A stretch of 64,000 bases of DNA, taken from positions 396,618 to 460,617 of the forward strand of contig JANXDH010000004.1 in NCBI GenBank assembly GCA_025059745.1, given 5' to 3'. The DNA comes from Aigarchaeota archaeon (GTDB lineage Archaea > Thermoproteota > Nitrososphaeria_A > Caldarchaeales > Calditenuaceae). Below, piece after piece: positions 3,680 to 21,440 of this stretch (the stretch's first letter is position 1; each line of letters opens with the position of its first letter). Below the pieces are notes generated by a model. It ran no database searches. It saw only the letters and a list, made by a program, of their open reading frames with translations, and was not told the DNA's origin. Both the position numbers and the translations under genes were made by a program.

Positions 3680-4171
3680 GTGTTAACAGAACGATTAATA
3701 AAGTTACCCGTAGATAATTTACGAGAGGGGCGACCGAGGTTGGCCTTCATAGCAGACGTCCTCTACTCGTGGGTGAGGGAGAACTCAGAGCGGCTCTCGA
3801 GGGATCTTAGGGGCGACGACAGGTCACTCCTAAAGGAGTTCAAGGAGATGGTTTGCGGCATGTGGATAACTACGAACTTCGAGGGATCGATCGAGGGCGT
3901 TAGAGTTGCAGCGGTCGACGGAGGGCTGATGAAGTTCAGGCTGGATAACGGAGGGTCGTTGATCCTCGCCTCCGCGTATGGCGTGGGAGAGGGAGTCGAG
4001 GAGCGCGAGTCCATGTGCAAGGTAATCTACCCGCCATACCAGAAATACGCGCAACTATTCATGAAGTCGCTCGAGCTGAGCGTCGCTAGGAAGTTAATCG
4101 GAGAGCTCTCCGGTGGAGGGGTGCTACTTCTGGACGGCTCGCTCTACGGGCTATTATCAACGCCCCCCTGA
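3680..4171 (+). CDS. nurA: NurA 5'-3' nuclease, N-terminal fragment; frame ends at TGA right after a C6 tract
   Basis: 163 aa with NurA catalytic motifs AAVDGG and LLLDGSL; immediately upstream of herA-mre11-rad50. Confidence 0.75.
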   Translation: MLTERLIKLPVDNLREGRPRLAFIADVLYSWVRENSERLSRDLRGDDRSLLKEFKEMVCGMWITTNFEGSIEGVRVAAVDGGLMKFRLDNGGSLILASAYGVGEGVEERESMCKVIYPPYQKYAQLFMKSLELSVARKLIGELSGGGVLLLDGSLYGLLSTPP

Positions 4172-4200
4172 CTCCCTATGAGGCACCACAGGGATATGGT

Positions 4201-5052
4201 GTGCTCTTAAAGGACTTCTACGTAAAGCTGGGAGCCCTCATCGATGACGCTAGGAAACGCGATGTAAAACTGATCTCCCTCGCTAAAGACAGCTCATCGT
4301 CGTTTCTGAGGGACTACTGCCTCTACAAGATGCACAGGGAAGAGGCGAGGAGGCTGAAGGCGCTACACCTGCTGGAACCTAAAGAATTGGAGACGGTGGA
4401 GACGCTCCTATACCGTATCTTTAGAACTCCAGTCGAAGCCGCGAGGACCGCCAAGAACCTGAAAGCGAGGTACGGACAGATACTAGAGAGGCTCGAAATG
4501 ATAGCAGGCGAGGGGCTCTCCAAGACGACCGACCTCATGATACTGAAGGGGTGCAGCTCAAGCATCGGTTACACCAAACCCATGCTCCTCGGCCCATCCT
4601 CTAGATTACTCGACCTCTACAAATCAGCGATGGTCGACATCGAGGAGTATACCATGGGAAAACTTCTACTGCCGTCCGAGATGGCAGAGGAGGTCTCCGA
4701 GGCTTTAGAGAGTATATCGTCTCTACCGGCGGTCGCCTCATCTTACGTGAGGTTTGATGTGCGCGACTATCCCCTGAGGATCGATATACCTGCGAACTCA
4801 CTCGGGATAGATAGGCGGTTCTTTGACGTGAGGATCCAAGAGCCACTGGAGGAGGACAGCGAGTTCAGGAAGCTACTCGTAATCCTGAGGTCATTGTACG
4901 CGAGTAAGGAGGTCCACAACGTCTGGATCCACGAGGCCGACAGGAGGGCCCGGTTCAGGAGGAGGGAGGCCTCGGCCCTCCTCGAGATACTGGACAAGGA
5001 AATCGGGCCGATCGAGCTATCGAGGAGGGGCATGCCCGAGCCTCCTGAGTGA
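4201..5052 (+). CDS. nurA: NurA nuclease, C-terminal fragment (this frame is open from 4090; continuation of the previous ORF after a -1 shift)
   Basis: 283 aa. The two fragments together give about 455 aa, similar to long archaeal NurA. 4-nt overlap with the herA start. Confidence 0.7.
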   Translation: MLLKDFYVKLGALIDDARKRDVKLISLAKDSSSSFLRDYCLYKMHREEARRLKALHLLEPKELETVETLLYRIFRTPVEAARTAKNLKARYGQILERLEMIAGEGLSKTTDLMILKGCSSSIGYTKPMLLGPSSRLLDLYKSAMVDIEEYTMGKLLLPSEMAEEVSEALESISSLPAVASSYVRFDVRDYPLRIDIPANSLGIDRRFFDVRIQEPLEEDSEFRKLLVILRSLYASKEVHNVWIHEADRRARFRRREASALLEILDKEIGPIELSRRGMPEPPE

Positions 5053-6695
5053 AAAAGCTTTTAGATCGGCGACCGCTGTACTTTAAAAGAATGGACCTCC
5101 GGATAAGCCATTACGTCAACACTCTCGAGGAGGTCGGCATAGTTGTCGGCGAGAGCAATCCATCGTCTTTCATCTTCTCGGTCCATCCACACGTCTCTGA
5201 TAGAGTTCTGCGTTGGGAATACGTCGTGGCTCCAGCAGGGTACGGACTCATCGTGGGACAGGTCCGCGAGGTAACCACCCTCAGCATCCTGCTCAAGAGG
5301 GATGTAGACTACGAGGTGTTGCTGCGCCTCTCGGAGAAGATCACCGAGGAGTGCAAGCATTGGAGGCGCGCTCAGGTGCTGGTACACGTCGAGGACCCTG
5401 CGAGACCAGAGGTCTCGGGGTACACGCGCGTCAGATATGCTATCACTCCGGGCACTCGCGTCTACCTCGCGCCCAGCGGTCTACTCTCAAGAATCTACTC
5501 GGGTGCCGGAAAGGCGTTGAGGGTGGGGCACCTGACTACTAGACCGGACGTTGAGATCGCGCTCTCTGCGTCTGGGTTCAGGAGGCACCTAGCCATAATT
5601 GCCCAGACTGGTGCGGGAAAGAGCTACCTCACGGGGGTCCTCTTGGAGGAGCTGCTGGAGAAGGGGGCCACGATAGTCGTCCTGGACCCACACGGAGACT
5701 ACGTTAGACTATCGAGCCGTAGTGATCATTGGACGACCCAGCTCGCGAGAAGGGTCTATGTGTACCGGGTCTTGGATAACGTGGGGAGGTACGCCGACGT
5801 CGAGAACGTGAGGCGGCTCTCGGTCAACATTCAGGACCTTAAGTTGGAAGAGATATTCTACATTTCCGGGATAAGGGAGAAATTCGTGCAAATCAAGTCT
5901 CTCGTATCTGAAGTTATTAAAGACTTGAAGCTGAGAGGCAGGTTCTCGATCAGGGAGGTAATTGAGGAGCTTGAACGGGCCTCTGAGGACGTTGAGAATA
6001 AAGAACGGAGAAAAATTGCCATTAGGGCGTTACCTTACCTTGACAAACTTCAGTACCTTTCAGTCCTAGGGGATACTACTACTAATTTTAGAGAGTTTTT
6101 GGCACCTAAACGCCTTTCAGTAATAGATCTTTCGGGGCTAAGTGATAGAGAGTCAGAACTCATAGCATACTTGATTCTAAAAGAGATTTTCAGGATTAAG
6201 ACGGCACCTGAAGATAAAGGATACCGGTACCCGGTCTTCATATTCATCGAGGAGGCTCATCGCTTTTTACCCCCAGCATTGTCGGGAGAGATCATCAAGC
6301 GAATAGCCGCCGAGGGGAGAAAGTTCGGCGCCTTCCTGACGTTGATCACCCATAGGCCGTCAAAGGTTCACCCGGACGTGCTCAGTCAGTGCAACAGCCA
6401 GATCATCATGAGGATAACCAACCCCTCGGACCAACAGGCCGTCCTCGAGGCCTCCGAGAGGCTCGGCAAAGAGCTACTCGAGGAGTTGCCGAGTCTGGGT
6501 ACGGGTGAGGCCGTCGTCGTCGGCGAGGTGATAAACATCCCGGCTGTGATCATGGTACGAAGGCGGAGGAGCCGCGAGGGCGGAATGGACGTTGACGTCG
6601 ATCGTCTACTGGACGAGGCTCTGGAGAGCGCTGAGAGGGAGGAAAGGGCAGATCGCGATTTGGATGAGTTCAGGAGATGGGTTAGGCCCTCATGA
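5049..6695 (+). CDS. herA: HerA hexameric DNA helicase/translocase (FtsK-HerA superfamily)
   Basis: 548 aa; Walker A AQTGAGKSY, Walker B FIFIEEAHRF, N-terminal HAS-barrel-like region; operon context. Confidence 0.9.
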   Translation: MKKLLDRRPLYFKRMDLRISHYVNTLEEVGIVVGESNPSSFIFSVHPHVSDRVLRWEYVVAPAGYGLIVGQVREVTTLSILLKRDVDYEVLLRLSEKITEECKHWRRAQVLVHVEDPARPEVSGYTRVRYAITPGTRVYLAPSGLLSRIYSGAGKALRVGHLTTRPDVEIALSASGFRRHLAIIAQTGAGKSYLTGVLLEELLEKGATIVVLDPHGDYVRLSSRSDHWTTQLARRVYVYRVLDNVGRYADVENVRRLSVNIQDLKLEEIFYISGIREKFVQIKSLVSEVIKDLKLRGRFSIREVIEELERASEDVENKERRKIAIRALPYLDKLQYLSVLGDTTTNFREFLAPKRLSVIDLSGLSDRESELIAYLILKEIFRIKTAPEDKGYRYPVFIFIEEAHRFLPPALSGEIIKRIAAEGRKFGAFLTLITHRPSKVHPDVLSQCNSQIIMRITNPSDQQAVLEASERLGKELLEELPSLGTGEAVVVGEVINIPAVIMVRRRRSREGGMDVDVDRLLDEALESAEREERADRDLDEFRRWVRPS

Positions 6696-7834
6696 CCCTC
6701 ATAGCACACATGGCGGATATACACCTGGGATACAGACAGTATCAGTTACTTGACCGAGAGATAGACGTATACGAGGCGTTCACCGAGGCCATCGATAAGA
6801 TCCTGGAAGAGCACGCAAAGGCCGTCCTGATCTCAGGGGACACCTTTCACACCTCTCTTCCCCCTATCAGGGCGCTGTGGCACGCAAAAGATTGTTTCGG
6901 TAAGCTTGGCGAACGAGGTATCAAGTCGTTCTACGTCTTGGGTGATCACGACGCACCGAGGAGGATAGGTCAATGGAGTCCTCTGGATCTCTTTAGAGAC
7001 CAACACCTGATACACGTGAATGAGACGAGCGTGAGAGTCGAACTCGACGGGCGAAACTTCCTAATAGCGGGCATAGATAAGCCCCCCGTCACCGCTACAG
7101 ACAAAGCGCGTGAGGTACTCGACCACCTCTCAAAGACCTCGTACAACGACGGCAGCACGAGGATCTTGGTCGCTCACGTACCGCAGCGATTTGGACGGGA
7201 CGAACTGAGCCTAGACGATCTACCGACGAACTTCGCATATTACGCGCTCGGTCACGAGCACTCCAGGACGATCATCAAGAGAGGTGCGGGGGTGGCTGCG
7301 TACCCGGGATCCATAGAGATATTCAGTAGAGACGAGGCCGTGAGTTGGAAGCGAGAAGGCAAAGGGTTCTACTTGGTCGACTTCTCGGGCTCAGAGCCGT
7401 CGATTCAAAGAGTAGACTTGGACTCGATAAGGCCTCAGGAGGTCATCGACGTCTCCCTCTCTGAGCCCCACGACAGGATATCTGAGCTGATCGTGAACCG
7501 GAATAAGAGACCCATACTCCACCTAAACATAAGAGACCATACGGTCGATCAAAGAAAGGTCCTTGAGTTAGTTGAGGAACTTCGGAGGATGGGGTGCCTT
7601 GACGTCCGGTATAGAACGGTGCCGCCGGCCGGATCGATGGACAGCGCTTCGATCACCCATTTCGACTTCTCACGCTTCAAAGTGGAGGAGCTCATCAAGA
7701 GTTGTGTATCCGAGATGGGTCTGTCAGAGGACGAAGCGAACCTTGCTCTACAGCTCTATAAGGTCTTCCACACGTCCGGGGAGGAGGGGTTGAGGGAACT
7801 GATGAGGAGGCGCATTGAAGTAGAGGGCGCATGA
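6692..7834 (+). CDS. mre11: Mre11 double-strand-break repair nuclease
   Basis: 380 aa; phosphoesterase motifs DIHLG, GDTFH, GDHD (variant of GNHD), VAH, GHEH, YPGS; 4-nt overlaps with herA and rad50. Confidence 0.9.
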   Translation: MTLIAHMADIHLGYRQYQLLDREIDVYEAFTEAIDKILEEHAKAVLISGDTFHTSLPPIRALWHAKDCFGKLGERGIKSFYVLGDHDAPRRIGQWSPLDLFRDQHLIHVNETSVRVELDGRNFLIAGIDKPPVTATDKAREVLDHLSKTSYNDGSTRILVAHVPQRFGRDELSLDDLPTNFAYYALGHEHSRTIIKRGAGVAAYPGSIEIFSRDEAVSWKREGKGFYLVDFSGSEPSIQRVDLDSIRPQEVIDVSLSEPHDRISELIVNRNKRPILHLNIRDHTVDQRKVLELVEELRRMGCLDVRYRTVPPAGSMDSASITHFDFSRFKVEELIKSCVSEMGLSEDEANLALQLYKVFHTSGEEGLRELMRRRIEVEGA

Positions 7835-10257
7835 TCATCAAGGAGGTCTACCTGAGGGACTTCATCTCGTACACCGAGGCGAGGGTGAAGTTCCCTTTAG
7901 GCGTCACGGTCATAGTCGGTGAGAACGGGAGCGGGAAGACCTCGATACTCGACGCAATCACCTACGCTCTCTTCATGGAGCACAGCAGAGGTCCTCGGCA
8001 GAATCTGATAAAGAGGGGCGCGACCTCCGCGAGAGTGGGGGCCGTCTTCTCCGTAAAGGGACGGAATTATCAGGTCGAGTGGGACCTCCTCTACCAGAAG
8101 TCTCCACGTGGTCACCTCAGAGACTTAGATAACGACCGTCCACTCGTCAAGCCAGGCTCTGGGGAGATGACGATAGTCCCTGAGATATCGAGGCTTACGG
8201 GTCTAGACAGCACCGTCTTCATGAACGCGATATACGTCAAGCAGGGCGAGATTGCGAGACTCCTCGATGATAAACCACACGAGAGAAAGAAGACAATCGC
8301 CCACCTCCTAGGGATAGAGGAGCTGGAGAAGTTATGGGATGCCATGAAGGGCCCCCTCAACGAGCTGGAGGAGAGGTTGGAATACTACGCGAGACAATTG
8401 GATAGAATGAAGGATGTCGAGGCCCAACTGAAGGAAAAGGAGCTGCAGCTCTCCGACAGGCAGAGCGAATATGGAGAGAAGGAGCATGAGAGAGTGAGAC
8501 TCGAGGAGGAGGTCCGCACACTCCAGAGGATGCTGAAGGAGATGGAGGAAAATAGGAGGAACCTCGAGGAGCTGGATGTGTCGATACTAAAATTAGAAGG
8601 GGAGATAGATAGCAGACGAAACGTAGTGAAGAGTCTGGACGAGAAGATCCAGAATCTAGAGGCTGCGCTCAGGGACCTCTCAGACAACCGGTCCTATCAT
8701 GAAGAGGCGGGGAAAATAGATGAGGAGCTGAGGGACTTGTCAAATCGGGTAGAGAGCATAGATCAGACGATCGATAAGAAGAGGCGTACCAAGTCTGAGG
8801 TCGAGAGGATGCGGTCAGAGCTGGACATGCTGGAGAAGGTCATAGCTGGTTTGGTGGACGATTTCAGGAGAGTGACAAGGGTCTCGGCCCACCCACTTGA
8901 ACTCCCGGACCTACGCGAGCACCTACTCAGGGATGTTGAGGTGAGGGTCGAAAAAGAGGAGAGAAAGCGACGAGCGAAAGAGCTGAAGAGGGCGAGATAC
9001 GGCGGCCTGATGTACGCATCGATCTCGGGGTCTTTCTTGGCGGCGACGATACTCTACTTGGCTTTTCAAAACCCACTCCCCGCCCTGCTCCCCATCATCA
9101 TCGAGGTGCCTGTTTATCTGCACCTTCGCCGGAGGCGAAAGTCGATCGAGGAAGAGATCAACAGCATTCAAGACGGGATAAAGGGTTTGTGGGAGGAGAG
9201 AGCCAAGCTTGAGGCTCTGACGGTCTCTGACGTTCGGGGACACCTTGAGAAGTACCAGAGACTGAGCGGCGAGATCAGCAGATTGGATGAGGACATCAAA
9301 GATTTAGACCAACTCGAGAGGGATCATTACAACCTCAGGGAGCGGATCAGGCAGTTGCAGGAGCATCTGGATCGCCTACAACCGATGAGCGAACGTTATG
9401 TGAAGGCCTTAGGAGTTATAGAGAGGGAGGGTCTGTCGTCACACGCTGAACTCGAGGAGCGGATCGAGCGGTTGAAGCGAGAGAGGAGCGATTCGGATGA
9501 GGTATTGAAGGGGATGAGAGAGAGGCTCGATGAGTTGAGGACCAGGAGGAGCTCCATCACGTACGATCGAGAGAAACACGACTCAACCCGAAAACGTCTC
9601 GAGGAGATCTTGCGAGAGCAGAGGGAGATCGAACAGATGGTCGCGAAGTTATCCGCAACTATAGAACATCTGAGTGAGGACTGCAAGAGGCTGAGGGTCG
9701 AGCTAGATAGTCTTAGAGAGATCAGGGACCGGTACCAGAGATTGGAGAGGGACGTCACCCTCCTTAGGAGGATCCGCGAGCTCTTTCATAAGGACGGGCT
9801 GCTCCAGAAGAGCGTCAGGAGGCAGGCTGCATCGATGATTGGGGAGGCCGCGAGGACTTTCCTCCAGGACTTCGGCCTGCAGTTCTCCGGTATTGAGGTG
9901 GACGAGGACTTTAACGTCAATGTCATCGGAAGGTACGGGAAGCAGCCCTTGGAGACGTTGAGTGGTGGTGAGCGGATCGTGGTCGCGCTGGTACTGAGGC
10001 TGGCGATAGCAGTCACTCTCGCCGGGGAGTCCCTGGAGACCATAATAATGGACGAGCCAACTGTCTACTTGGACTCGGAGAGGAGGCGAGAGCTCTCGGA
10101 GCTCCTCAAGAACTTCAGGGGAGGCGGGCGGCTGATACCTCAGGTGATAGTGGTCTCACACGACAGGGAGTTAGAGGACTCTGCAGACCAGGTATACGAG
10201 GTCGTCCTATCTGAGAGCGGATCAGTGATAAGAAATTACGGAGAGTTCAGTCCGTAG
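7831..10257 (+). CDS. rad50: Rad50 ATPase (SMC-like), atypical: no CxxC hook
   Basis: 808 aa; Walker A GENGSGKTS, signature LSGGE, Walker B IIMDEPTVYLD, VSHD; long heptad-rich Glu/Arg/Leu arms. Confidence 0.9.
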   Translation: MIIKEVYLRDFISYTEARVKFPLGVTVIVGENGSGKTSILDAITYALFMEHSRGPRQNLIKRGATSARVGAVFSVKGRNYQVEWDLLYQKSPRGHLRDLDNDRPLVKPGSGEMTIVPEISRLTGLDSTVFMNAIYVKQGEIARLLDDKPHERKKTIAHLLGIEELEKLWDAMKGPLNELEERLEYYARQLDRMKDVEAQLKEKELQLSDRQSEYGEKEHERVRLEEEVRTLQRMLKEMEENRRNLEELDVSILKLEGEIDSRRNVVKSLDEKIQNLEAALRDLSDNRSYHEEAGKIDEELRDLSNRVESIDQTIDKKRRTKSEVERMRSELDMLEKVIAGLVDDFRRVTRVSAHPLELPDLREHLLRDVEVRVEKEERKRRAKELKRARYGGLMYASISGSFLAATILYLAFQNPLPALLPIIIEVPVYLHLRRRRKSIEEEINSIQDGIKGLWEERAKLEALTVSDVRGHLEKYQRLSGEISRLDEDIKDLDQLERDHYNLRERIRQLQEHLDRLQPMSERYVKALGVIEREGLSSHAELEERIERLKRERSDSDEVLKGMRERLDELRTRRSSITYDREKHDSTRKRLEEILREQREIEQMVAKLSATIEHLSEDCKRLRVELDSLREIRDRYQRLERDVTLLRRIRELFHKDGLLQKSVRRQAASMIGEAARTFLQDFGLQFSGIEVDEDFNVNVIGRYGKQPLETLSGGERIVVALVLRLAIAVTLAGESLETIIMDEPTVYLDSERRRELSELLKNFRGGGRLIPQVIVVSHDRELEDSADQVYEVVLSESGSVIRNYGEFSP

Positions 10258-18656: not shown

Positions 18657-19676
18657 ATGTCTAGGAATAGGGTGACGATCTTTGGAGGGTCAGGCTTCAT
18701 AGGGTCCGCCGTCTCCAAGAGGTTGATTGAGGAGGGGTTTCACGTCCGCGTCGCGGACCTCTCATATCCAAAACCTGGACACTTCTCGGAGTTCATCAGC
18801 TGCGATATCAGAGACCATAGGGCCGTTCAGAGGGCAGCAGAGGACAGCGACGTGGTGATTAACACCGCGATAATACAGATACCCCGTATCAGCCAGGATC
18901 CCAAGCTAGGTTACGAGGTGAACGTGATAGGAACCCAGAACGTCTGCGAGGCCGTCGTACGCAACTCCAACTGCAAAGGCCTTATCCACGCGGGGACCTG
19001 GCACACCGTCGGAGAGATAGGCCTGGAGGGTATCATCGACGAGGATTTCGGTTACAGGCCGGACAAGGTCGAGGAGCGCGCTAGGATCTACGTACTAACG
19101 AAGGTATGCCAGGAGGTAACGGTCAGGCTCTTCAACTACATCAGACGGGAGAAGAGGTTCATAGTGCTCCGTACAGGTACTGTGATGGGTAGGGACATGC
19201 CTGAGCAGACTGCCGCCAGGATCTTCATAAAGAATGCCCTCCAGGGCAGGCCTATAACGCCATATAGGCATAGTATGCACAGACCGATGCTATACGTGGA
19301 CGTCAACGACGTCTCAAACGCGTACCTCGCGGCCGCCAAGTTAATACTCGATTCAGGAGAGACCGATAGCCCCCAAGTCTTCAACGTCTTCCATCCGGAA
19401 CCAATAACCATAATTGAGCTCGCCGAGGAGGTCAAGCGTTCCGTCGAGGAGCTAACCAAGGGAAGGATAGCCCCGACCATAGAGGTCTTGGATCAAGGTG
19501 TCGAACCGCTCTATACCCCACAAGACAAATTTAAGTTCACTTTCAGGCTCGACAGGTTGCAGAGGTTACTGGGTCAATACAATCTGAGGAATCCGAGGGA
19601 GTCAGTTAGAGATATCATACGTAGCGAACTAGAGAATTCGGGTCAAAAGTTGAGTGCGAAGAGAGAACTTTCATAA
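18657..19676 (+). CDS. NAD-dependent epimerase/dehydratase family protein
   Basis: 339 aa; FGGSGFIGSAV Rossmann motif, YVLTK catalytic motif. Confidence 0.8.
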   Translation: MSRNRVTIFGGSGFIGSAVSKRLIEEGFHVRVADLSYPKPGHFSEFISCDIRDHRAVQRAAEDSDVVINTAIIQIPRISQDPKLGYEVNVIGTQNVCEAVVRNSNCKGLIHAGTWHTVGEIGLEGIIDEDFGYRPDKVEERARIYVLTKVCQEVTVRLFNYIRREKRFIVLRTGTVMGRDMPEQTAARIFIKNALQGRPITPYRHSMHRPMLYVDVNDVSNAYLAAAKLILDSGETDSPQVFNVFHPEPITIIELAEEVKRSVEELTKGRIAPTIEVLDQGVEPLYTPQDKFKFTFRLDRLQRLLGQYNLRNPRESVRDIIRSELENSGQKLSAKRELS

Positions 19677-19710
19677 CTGTACCCCGAGAGATCCTCTGAC
19701 CTCACCAGAG

Positions 19711-21216
19711 ATGACCCGCATCAGACTCAGACTCACGGGAGCTATCGCCTTCGTATCAAGCATCTATGGTCAACTCATCGGCCTCCTCTTCTCGATACTA
19801 ATAGCTAGGAGACTCGCCCCCGACGTGTTCGGTTCCTGGGCGTATATCGGTTTCCTCATCTCGTATTCCCTGATACCGTTCAACCTGATTAATTCGTGGA
19901 TAGCGAGGGACTCCGCTCGTGGCAGAAAGGTTCAAGTCCCTGTACTGATAGCCAGTTCGTTCCTTTTTCCGCCAAGCGTGATAATCTATTTAGCAGTAGC
20001 GTATTATACGCACTCACAGATAGCCACCGACCTAAGCGTTCTGCTTCTCGGGCTCCTCGTGTTAATACCCAACTCTCTGGTCAACCTCTACGCTGCCATC
20101 GTCACCGGTTACGCTCCCCATCTTCAGGTAGTAGGCTCGATGCTCTTCGAGACCGTCAAGCTCTTAGTTGCGGTTGCGTTGGTCCTCGGACTGAAGGACG
20201 TATCATTGAACGCGGCGATACTCTCGGTATCTCTCGGTTACATTGCCTATCTGATGTTCTTAGTGGTCATAGCCAGGGAGACTTTAGGGCCAGAAGACAT
20301 CAGAGGGGCGCTTGGTAGATGGTTGAGAGGTTCCGTCCTCTCGGGCGTCGCTATTGCAGTTTATACGTTTTACGGTCTCGATATATTACTGATAAGCATC
20401 TTCACGGGAGGTACGTTGATTACGGGGTATTGGCAGGCCGCTTTAATCGTCTCATCACTCATCAACGCCCCCTCTCTATTGATCGGCGCCCTCTTTCAAA
20501 GACTGCTAGCTGGAGGAGATATGAGGGACGCCTCAAAGAGCCTCCACTTCACGTTAACGTTGGCGGTCCCCCTCTTTTTTGGTATCGTCGTGCTCTCAGA
20601 TTACCTACTATCTATCCTCAACCCACTCTACGCAGAGGTGTGGCCCGTGGCCTCTATATTAGCAGCGACGACCTTCGTTTCCATCGTGTATACTTTCTAC
20701 ACTACAATAATAAGCGCCACAGAGACCATCGATCAGACAGGAGTTCCCCGCCTCCGCGAGTATCTGCGAAGCAGGATAGCCTTCACAATTTACGTGATGG
20801 GCGCGACGGTACCGGTCTACTTAGTGCCCATACTGGTCATACTCACCACTTTCGAAGGACCCCCCTCGCTCACCCTCACTGCGATCGCATCGGTGAAGCT
20901 GCTCGTGACCTCACTCCAGACGATGATCTATTACCTCTACGTAAGAAGACACGTAAGACTCTCTATCAGTACGCGTGAGGTAGTCCCGTACTTCTCCTCC
21001 TCATTGGCGATGATGTCTGTGATCTTAACGGTCAAGCAGATGTTAGGCCCGCCAGCGCCACAGCTCTTCTCGACTTTAGCGGATTTCGGAGCACTCGCAC
21101 TGATAGGCGCCTCCGTATACTTCCCACTCCTTTACGCCACTAGTGGCCGTTTCAGGTCATTGGTGAGGGACTTGAGGGCCTTCTTTCAGGGGATCCTACG
21201 CGGCCCCGGTCTGTAG
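19711..21216 (+). CDS. polysaccharide/oligosaccharide flippase (MOP/Wzx-like polytopic membrane protein)
   Basis: About 500 aa, hydrophobic throughout with more than 10 predicted TM segments; located in the glycan gene cluster; ATG at 19711 inside ORF 19654-21216. Confidence 0.65.
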   Translation: MTRIRLRLTGAIAFVSSIYGQLIGLLFSILIARRLAPDVFGSWAYIGFLISYSLIPFNLINSWIARDSARGRKVQVPVLIASSFLFPPSVIIYLAVAYYTHSQIATDLSVLLLGLLVLIPNSLVNLYAAIVTGYAPHLQVVGSMLFETVKLLVAVALVLGLKDVSLNAAILSVSLGYIAYLMFLVVIARETLGPEDIRGALGRWLRGSVLSGVAIAVYTFYGLDILLISIFTGGTLITGYWQAALIVSSLINAPSLLIGALFQRLLAGGDMRDASKSLHFTLTLAVPLFFGIVVLSDYLLSILNPLYAEVWPVASILAATTFVSIVYTFYTTIISATETIDQTGVPRLREYLRSRIAFTIYVMGATVPVYLVPILVILTTFEGPPSLTLTAIASVKLLVTSLQTMIYYLYVRRHVRLSISTREVVPYFSSSLAMMSVILTVKQMLGPPAPQLFSTLADFGALALIGASVYFPLLYATSGRFRSLVRDLRAFFQGILRGPGL

Positions 21217-21338: not shown

Positions 21339-21440
21339 GGGGGCGTAGCCTAGCAAGGTCTACGGCGCCGGGCTCCAGATCTGTGCTACCTGGTCAGAAG
21401 CGTAACCCGGAGATCGTGGGTTCAAATCCCACCGCCCCCA
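21339..21440 (+). tRNA. tRNA-Trp (anticodon CCA at 21375-21377) with 26-nt intron at 21379-21404
   Basis: Acceptor GGGGGCG/CGCCCCC, anticodon stem CCGGG/CCCGG, T arm GTGGG-TTCAAAT-CCCAC, discriminator A; intron CUGG can pair with CCAG of the loop. Confidence 0.85.

Follow-up and report, generated by a model that had tools for sequence, protein, structure and literature searches.

What holds the two arms of Rad50 together where the zinc hook is missing? From phage to human, the hook is regarded as a Rad50 hallmark; its job is to hold together the two Rad50 arms of the M2R2 complex at their tips, and whether it merely does that has been debated for two decades. The question is raised by a 64,000-nucleotide stretch of DNA from an Aigarchaeota archaeon (assembly GCA_025059745.1, contig JANXDH010000004.1, positions 396,618 to 460,617 of the forward strand), hereafter the window, to which the coordinates below refer. 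Its rad50 gene (7831..10257, plus strand, as are all genes and segments of the operon described here) encodes a protein of 808 amino acids (aa) with a bipartite ABC-ATPase head, an antiparallel coiled coil and no zinc hook. At the coiled coil's apex lies an uncharged hydrophobic segment between two basic flanks. We consider it likely that this segment is a membrane-spanning helical hairpin, predicted to have both ends in the cytoplasm (N-in/C-in), which anchors the coiled-coil tips in place of the zinc hook; the hairpin probably also joins the tips within the membrane.

Rad50 and its missing hook

The gene is the last of a nurA-herA-mre11-rad50 operon. Its product matched the Pfam families SMC_N, AAA_23 and SbcC_Walker_B, with a weak match to AAA_27 (PF13514) confined to the P-loop region (aa 1–79). 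The top NCBIfam models were Rad50 equivalogs (E = 7e-87, with scores under their taxon-specific cut-offs), and the top PDB sequence matches were the Rad50 heads of M. jannaschii and P. furiosus (E = 2e-63). A non-Rad50 SMC-like paralogue (ASRP, arcadin-4 or SMC) was rejected, as such models scored far under those of Rad50 and the gene lies in an mre11 operon. An earlier note on this DNA, made from the letters alone, had listed three intact ATPase motifs, and all of them were found where it had placed them: the Walker A/P-loop GENGSGKTS (7918..7944; aa 30–38), the ABC signature LSGGE (9958..9972; aa 710–714) and the Walker B and D-loop stretch IIMDEPTVYLD (10042..10074; aa 738–748). With Q138 of the Q-loop and the H-loop histidine H777 (10159..10161), the head has every motif expected of Rad50, from Walker A, Q-loop and signature to Walker B, D-loop and H-loop. 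These positions are strongly conserved: G30, G33, G35 and K36 are invariant or nearly so in alignments A3 and A4, as is Q138, like the other ATPase motifs; S711, G712, G713 and E714 are invariant in alignments A1, A2 and A4, and in A3 S711 and G713 are invariant with G712 and E714 nearly so; D741, E742 and D748 are invariant, and H777 is so in every alignment.

An AlphaFold2 (AF2) model built from a 39-sequence alignment (mean pLDDT 83.9) places an ABC head on a long antiparallel coiled coil with a fold-back at 412–416, and Foldseek on this model ranked Rad50 first, the best matches being Rad50 and SMC proteins. The ascending arm (8314..8964; about aa 162–378) is modelled as helices 162–244, 259–285, 287–349 and 355–411 with pLDDT mostly 80–90, and the descending arm (9142..9783; about aa 438–651) as helices 417–461, 468–489, 492–532, 538–563 and 580–651. 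The near-continuous helices across 162–651 thus form the intramolecular antiparallel coiled coil that defines a Rad50. In contrast to this otherwise complete set of features, neither the zinc-hook CxxC nor a match to the hook family PF04423 was found in the window Rad50. Its sole cysteine is aa 618, within SEDCKRL, and a single cysteine leaves no room for a CxxC hook, as had been argued before. Judged from its sequence, the window protein is Rad50 by descent, head, coil and operon, yet lacks the hook.

Where the hook would sit, the coiled coil, which is 48% charged around this point, is interrupted by the segment GGLMYASISGSFLAATILYLAFQNPLPALLPIIIEVPVYLHL (9001..9126; aa 391–432), centred at 0.51 of the protein length and hence at the midpoint where the interruption had been reported. 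Glu425 is the single charged residue among its 42 residues, and the brackets are the two basic clusters originally described. On the N side stands KRRAKELKRAR (8965..8997; aa 379–389), with a net charge of +3 over its last 8 residues. It leads into hydrophobic helix 1, GGLMYASISGSFLAATILYLA (9001..9063; aa 391–411), which is rich in Gly, Ala and Ser and continues the AF2 helix 355–411. The uncharged turn FQNPLP follows (9064..9081; aa 412–417; non-helical at 412–416 in the AF2 model), then the short hydrophobic helix 2, ALLPIIIEVPVYLHL (9082..9126; aa 418–432), which holds Glu425 and two prolines and begins the AF2 helix 417–461. On the C side RRRRK (9127..9141; aa 433–437) gives a net charge of +4 over 8 residues.

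The uncharged apex is not a compositional accident, since none of 20,000 shuffles of Rad50 residues 165–650 gave a 42-aa window with one charged residue or fewer, and a binomial estimate of the chance is about 3e-8. That the apex is an assembly or frameshift artefact has a negligible probability in our judgement: the source is a metagenome-assembled genome (MAG), and nothing further speaks for an artefact. The identical 808-aa protein occurs on three contigs, one of them from a Logan assembly made independently from run SRR15826900, and the same apex recurs in the ten closest protein clusters and in more than ten clusters overall, by which an assembly artefact is ruled out.

Relatives and descent of the hydrophobic apex

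Homologues were sorted with a classifier that calls a transmembrane (TM) type when a 36-aa segment has at most one charged residue and a mean hydropathy above 1.2 and there is no CxxC; it split the hydrophobic-apex and the hooked groups without overlap. TM-type members (P0001–P0010, P0099, P0100 and P0124, and loci L001–L005) have no CxxC and a mean Kyte-Doolittle hydropathy of 1.4–2.6. The ten clusters closest to the window Rad50 (P0001–P0010; 34–45% identical) all have the hydrophobic apex and no PF04423. Most hits from P0011 onward carry PF04423, all of those with a central CxxC; P0014, P0018 and P0025 had no PF04423 match, yet their central CxxC is present. Close relatives without the CxxC and with the same hydrophobic apex are thus found, as would be expected of a clade-conserved feature. 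In total about 13 protein clusters have a TM-type apex, mostly from MAGs of Caldarchaeales (Aigarchaeota), and such proteins recur in NCBI, JGI, ENA and Logan data; their carriers make up a small set of hot-spring archaea.

An exhaustive profile search covered 1.84 billion representatives (50% clusters). Among the best 150 it returned, beyond the query members P0001, P0002 and P0005, three more of the TM type (P0099 and the fragments P0100 and P0124), together with, among the 143 others, 139 hooked proteins (CxxC) and one N-terminal fragment. A profile search of a word-indexed protein database added none to the ten clade members that the first search had given. Among the GTDB species genomes the TM type was present in three Caldarchaeales/Caldarchaeum MAGs (L001–L004) and on one short contig (L005) of a MAG labelled Desulfurococcaceae, and the 25 other archaeal loci examined there were hooked. 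Other TM-type members carry the submitter labels Sulfolobales and Bathyarchaeia/Bathyarchaeota, on short contigs with unconfirmed binning.

Hooked relatives of equal length have CP[LVT]C at the place that the hairpin turn (QNPLP, TPIAP, HPLL etc.) takes up in alignments A1 and A4, and in A4 the window's FQNPLP stands against the CPLC hook of its hooked sister proteins. Proline or glycine occurs at or near the turn in most clade members. With hooked archaeal Rad50 (P. furiosus, M. jannaschii, Sulfolobus; PF04423) the window protein shares the ABC-ATPase head with all its motifs, the pairing with Mre11 and the operon; its coiled coil is similar in length to that of its sisters of about 800 aa, and it nests inside the hooked archaeal group. 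Unlike these proteins, it has no CxxC or PF04423, its lone cysteine lies elsewhere, and the apex is occupied by the basic-flanked, uncharged hairpin, 39–45 aa long.

Descent was followed in a neighbour-joining, purely distance-based tree (778 columns, 200 bootstraps). Ten TM-type sequences (nine proteins and L002, with P0099 apart) form a clade in 200 of the 200 bootstraps, also when the apex columns are left out. This clade groups, again in 200/200, with the hooked proteins P0101, P0102, P0103 and P0011 of about 800 aa, inside archaeal Rad50, which makes the window protein a Rad50 by orthologous descent. P0099 fell into the larger group, with 20–93 of 200 bootstraps supporting its position, and given that placement the membrane apex may have arisen twice. 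This divergent TM-type Rad50 of 806 aa (L076, 4342–6762) adjoins mre11, has no adjacent herA or nurA and lies near a TackOD1-domain gene.

The hooked P0102 (about 800 aa, from a Caldarchaeales MAG) and the TM-type P0005 both stand in the same four-gene operon, so the replacement of the hook took place in orthologues that share one locus, in Caldarchaeales or close to them. The contrast can be seen between two loci with this operon: L078 (GCA_039630085.1) encodes the hooked 800-aa P0102, whereas L001 (JBCNVN010000014.1, DT_Bin_20) encodes the TM-type 808-aa P0002. Both are Caldarchaeales MAGs with the adjacent accession prefixes JBCNVM and JBCNVN and form a natural pair for comparison. A homologue search from P0102 for a hooked and a TM-type Rad50 in one assembly gave one close relative only (P0279). 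Two contigs of the MAG Caldarchaeum sp. GXS_201803_bins_40 (L002 and L004) hold two complete operons, with TM-type Rad50 proteins of 804 and 808 aa, which points to a duplicated operon or to a bin that combines two strains.

Properties of the apex as a probable membrane hairpin

Across the TM-type members the uncharged core keeps a length of 39–45 residues, and the turn is without charge. The summed free energy (dG) on the Hessa scale for the best 19-mer, which is in helix 1, ranged from a borderline +1.8 kcal/mol in the window Rad50 to -3.3 across the clade, and in P0002, P0006, P0009 and P0010 both 19-mers are at about 1 or below (range -3 to +1). As a calibration within the window, 6 of the 59 long open reading frames (ORFs) contain a 19-mer below 2, namely Rad50, CDP-archaeol synthase and four multi-segment ORFs; the best 19-mer of the remaining long ORFs is at 2.8 or above, mostly 5–13. 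By hydrophobicity the Rad50 apex thus falls among the window's membrane proteins.

The Eisenberg mean hydrophobicity (<H>) of the clade's apex segments is mostly 0.53–0.90 and their hydrophobic moment (muH) 0.02–0.31, mostly 0.25 or less. For aa 407–424 of the window Rad50 the values are 0.68 and 0.19, and a low exception is its first-helix window (<H> 0.37), in which two flank residues are included. By comparison, <H> does not exceed 0.09 in the coiled-coil segments of this protein, where muH reaches 0.59. The apex helices are thus uniformly hydrophobic and not amphipathic, with no polar face. Small residues (Gly/Ala/Ser/Thr) make up 0.36–0.52 of the first helix across the clade and 0.48 of the N-terminal half of the core in the window Rad50; such richness is typical of tightly packing membrane helices. 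The 8-residue flanks carry a mean net charge of +2.55 on the N side and +2.91 on the C side, as opposed to -0.29 ± 1.49 for 8-mers taken from the coiled coils of these proteins (Mann-Whitney p = 2e-13), so the positive-inside rule holds for the apex flanks of the clade. The hydrophobicity scales, then, place the segment in the transmembrane class by its predicted properties, between flanks that are significantly positive. The helical hairpin proposed in the earlier note appears in the AF2 model as a predicted helix-turn-helix: the ascending coil runs into helix 1 (355–411), the turn occupies 412–416, and helix 2 runs on into the descending coil (417–461).

In the proposed arrangement both coiled-coil arms would run straight into the hydrophobic helices, joined by the short uncharged Pro/Gly/Asn turn, which would come to lie level with the outer face of the membrane or slightly outside it. 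The Lys/Arg clusters on each side would hold both ends in the cytoplasm; N-in/C-in is the sole consistent topology, given two positive flanks and a head that has to be in the cytoplasm. Together with Mre11, the ATPase head would hang some 30 nm below the membrane, a distance that follows from arms of about 225 residues each. The job of the hook would be taken over by co-insertion of both M2R2 tips into one bilayer, probably assisted by hairpin-hairpin packing through the small-residue-rich helix 1; the membrane would in this way close the M2R2 ring, and end processing by Mre11-Rad50, with HerA-NurA, would take place at the membrane. We infer insertion, dimerization in the membrane and membrane-located end processing from predictions.

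Several points weigh against a spanning hairpin. The AF2 confidence at the apex is modest (pLDDT 56–70), and the Hessa and hydrophobicity values are simple sums over literature scale values and therefore rough. Helix 2 of the window Rad50 is the weakest of the clade, having 15 aa with Glu425 and two prolines and a dG of +7 to +11 on its own; it is likewise weak in the Caldarchaeum subclade (P0003, P0004), the values including the window protein being +5 to +11. Two features of the gene neighbourhood, dealt with below, stand on the same side. A helix 2 that is short (about 15–17 aa), proline-rich and so unfavourable in these proteins would suit a monotopic or re-entrant hairpin, one that enters the membrane (or a tetraether monolayer) from its cytoplasmic face and is anchored without crossing it; an uncharged core of 39–45 aa is also tight for two spans and a turn. 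For the window protein, with its short helix 2 containing Pro and Glu, this is a serious alternative, which we nevertheless hold to be unlikely, since P0002, P0006, P0009 and P0010 have two full helices scoring as transmembrane (dG -3 to +1), and two helices of 18–20 aa with a tight turn suffice to span.

A further possibility is that the apex is a soluble, metal-free dimerization module, in which two Rad50 apices pack as a four-helix bundle with no membrane involved. The small-residue-rich helix 1 would favour tight helix packing, and the essential role of the hook is dimerization, for which unrelated dimerizers can be substituted (PMC6969161). The low moments (muH 0.02–0.31) and the lack of a polar face mean, however, that such a bundle would expose a greasy surface; there are only 0–1 charged residues in 39–45 aa, and the conserved positive flanks are a membrane-topology signal for which a soluble bundle has no need. 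Moreover, overproduction of the analogous central domain of SbcE in E. coli gave completely insoluble protein (PMC2811018). We regard a purely soluble module as improbable. Anchoring in the membrane and dimerization are not mutually exclusive, and the earlier proposal, a basic-flanked membrane hairpin or a metal-free dimerizer replacing the hook, is supported as a prediction by the computational evidence.

The neighbourhood points concern decay, that is, a hydrophobic apex that would be no more than a tolerated loss of the hook while the repair operon degenerates on the way to a pseudogene or to re-use. The first is that nurA is split, reproducibly, over two frames. Its N-terminal part (3680..4171) is 58% identical to aa 1–143 of the 437-aa NurA of L002, whose ORF matches Pfam NurA, and its C-terminal part (4201..5052; 283 aa) is 48% identical to aa 156–436; the N-terminal ORF has 163 aa as listed and 143 aa as called. 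The frame changes after a C run just ahead of the TGA stop at 4169–4171 (...acgcccccctga). The split is likely real, being present in the independent Logan assembly L082, and would represent a split gene, a pseudogene or a programmed frameshift. The second point is the state of mre11 and the TM-type rad50 in four MAGs of Candidatus Caldarchaeum sp. (L072–L075), where both genes are broken, identically, into several ORFs (in L072, about 3696–7245, mre11 into 195 + 151 aa and rad50 into 98 + 225 + 82 + 414 aa). No herA or nurA lies upstream of mre11 there, a PAC2 gene standing in that place instead, and the 414-aa rad50 product begins right at the hydrophobic apex; by its sequence the pair looks like a decaying mre11-rad50 copy. 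These signs raise the possibility of relaxed selection on the system in some lineages. On the other side, the rad50 ORF of the window is intact, the ATPase motifs are invariant across proteins only 34–45% identical, and the four-gene operons of L002, L004 and L077 are intact. Furthermore, the hydrophobicity, length, position and flank charge of the apex are kept while its sequence drifts, which argues for selection on the feature. Decay as the explanation of the apex is therefore very improbable, and the anchoring hairpin remains the reading that we prefer.

Known counterparts, operon and implications

The closest analogue of the window Rad50 is SbcE (YhaN) of B. subtilis, an SMC/SbcC-like ATPase without CxxC and the partner of the SbcF (YhaO) nuclease, with which it acts in double-strand-break repair; in competent cells it accumulates at the poles (PMC2811018). 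Between its coiled-coil arms lies a central domain that was completely insoluble on overproduction, whose first half is strongly hydrophobic, and which contains a conserved proline; its authors did not describe the domain as transmembrane (PMC2811018). By description, the two proteins have in common the lack of CxxC and a hydrophobic central domain with a conserved proline. Transmembrane helices are annotated in YhaN in databases. The differences are considerable: SbcE is a bacterial (Firmicutes) protein of some 960 aa that occurs as a fourth SMC-like paralogue beside a hooked SbcC, whereas the window Rad50 is archaeal and has 808 aa. Nor, going by the description of SbcE, does the window protein belong to the SbcE family: beyond the generic SMC head the archaeal clade appears unrelated to it, the best models for the window protein are archaeal Rad50, and the herA-nurA operon supplies an archaeal Mre11 as its partner. 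The resemblance of the two apices, if real, would be convergent, because the archaeal clade nests within hooked archaeal Rad50.

That the apex of Rad50 can be exchanged is known from yeast, where Rad50 stays functional when the hook is swapped for the hinge of MukB or BsSMC and a CC/GG hook mutant is dead, the hook acting as a stable tip-joining module (PMC6969161). These chimeras (Rad50-MukBhinge and Rad50-BsSMChinge), which likewise have an unrelated apex-joining module in place of the hook and still repair DNA, show that the Rad50 apex is modular. Their hinges are artificial, soluble and 150–200 aa long, whereas the archaeal replacement is natural, about 42 aa long and predicted to lie in the membrane. 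A further set lacking the central CxxC is formed by bacterial SbcC-like proteins of about 920 aa (P0047, P0054, P0058, P0063, P0065 and P0068), which are distant from the window Rad50 (E 1e-12 to 1e-18). In contrast to the archaeal clade they have no hydrophobic apex; hydropathy in the middle of these proteins is low, and the sequence there is polar or rich in Gln, with 2 or more charged residues per 36 aa. P0056 and P0059 are also among these hookless distant hits, and P0068 comes from a cyanobacterial MAG. Judging by such hits, hookless SbcC-like proteins appear not to be rare.

The earlier note had added that it knew of no described Rad50 with such an apex. In the literature found, of which the coverage is incomplete, there was indeed no description of a Rad50/SbcC orthologue with a transmembrane apex, and a review of Mre11/Rad50 (PMC7752040) makes no mention of one. 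This part of the statement stands, but it has to be qualified by the case of SbcE, hookless and with a central domain that is hydrophobic and insoluble (PMC2811018).

The operon ahead of rad50 continues, downstream of the split nurA, with herA (5049..6695; 548 aa), a helicase/translocase matching Pfam DUF87/HerA central domain (E = 3e-38) and the NCBIfam model helicase_HerA (E = 1e-68). Its start varies with the gene call (548 aa from a GTG overlapping the nurA stop, 534 aa in the NCBI record), and there is a weaker match to the CedD DNA-translocating ATPase model (E = 1e-27). The nuclease gene mre11 follows (6692..7834; 380 aa; NCBIfam Mre11_Sulfo, E = 1e-61, profile positions 2–359 of 374; Pfam Metallophos_2), and its stop overlaps the start of rad50. 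The order nurA-herA-mre11-rad50 is the standard operon of thermophilic archaea; it also occurs in the relatives L002, L004 and L077, and a rad50 next to mre11 is found in L001, L002, L004, L076, L077 and L078. The rest of the window genes are housekeeping genes. Two tRNA genes, at 1153–1242 (89 nt) and 21339–21440 (102 nt), are over-long and probably represent intron-containing archaeal tRNAs; ARAGORN gave no anticodon for the former and missed the latter, which was detected by Rfam. A 520-aa ORF (19654–21216) without a Pfam match at E ≤ 1e-5 encodes an uncharacterized multi-pass membrane protein, in which five or more segments are strongly hydrophobic.

The exchange of the hook for a predicted membrane hairpin within a canonical repair operon amounts to a natural experiment on the role of the hook. 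It suggests that joining of the tips suffices and that the membrane can supply it, the apex of about 42 aa being a simple, portable module. A bolder scenario, which we put forward tentatively and at somewhat less than even confidence, is that the only Rad50 of these archaea is an integral membrane protein, with the bilayer replacing the hook, a membrane-closed ring entrapping DNA, and all end processing carried out at the envelope. If true, it would be a natural membrane-tethered form of the initiation of homologous recombination, and it may link to DNA entering or leaving through the membrane, as hinted by the localization of Bacillus SbcE at the poles of competent cells. If insertion is confirmed, this would be, as far as the literature found goes, the first described membrane-anchored Mre11-Rad50 complex, and double-strand-break processing in these cells would be confined to the envelope.

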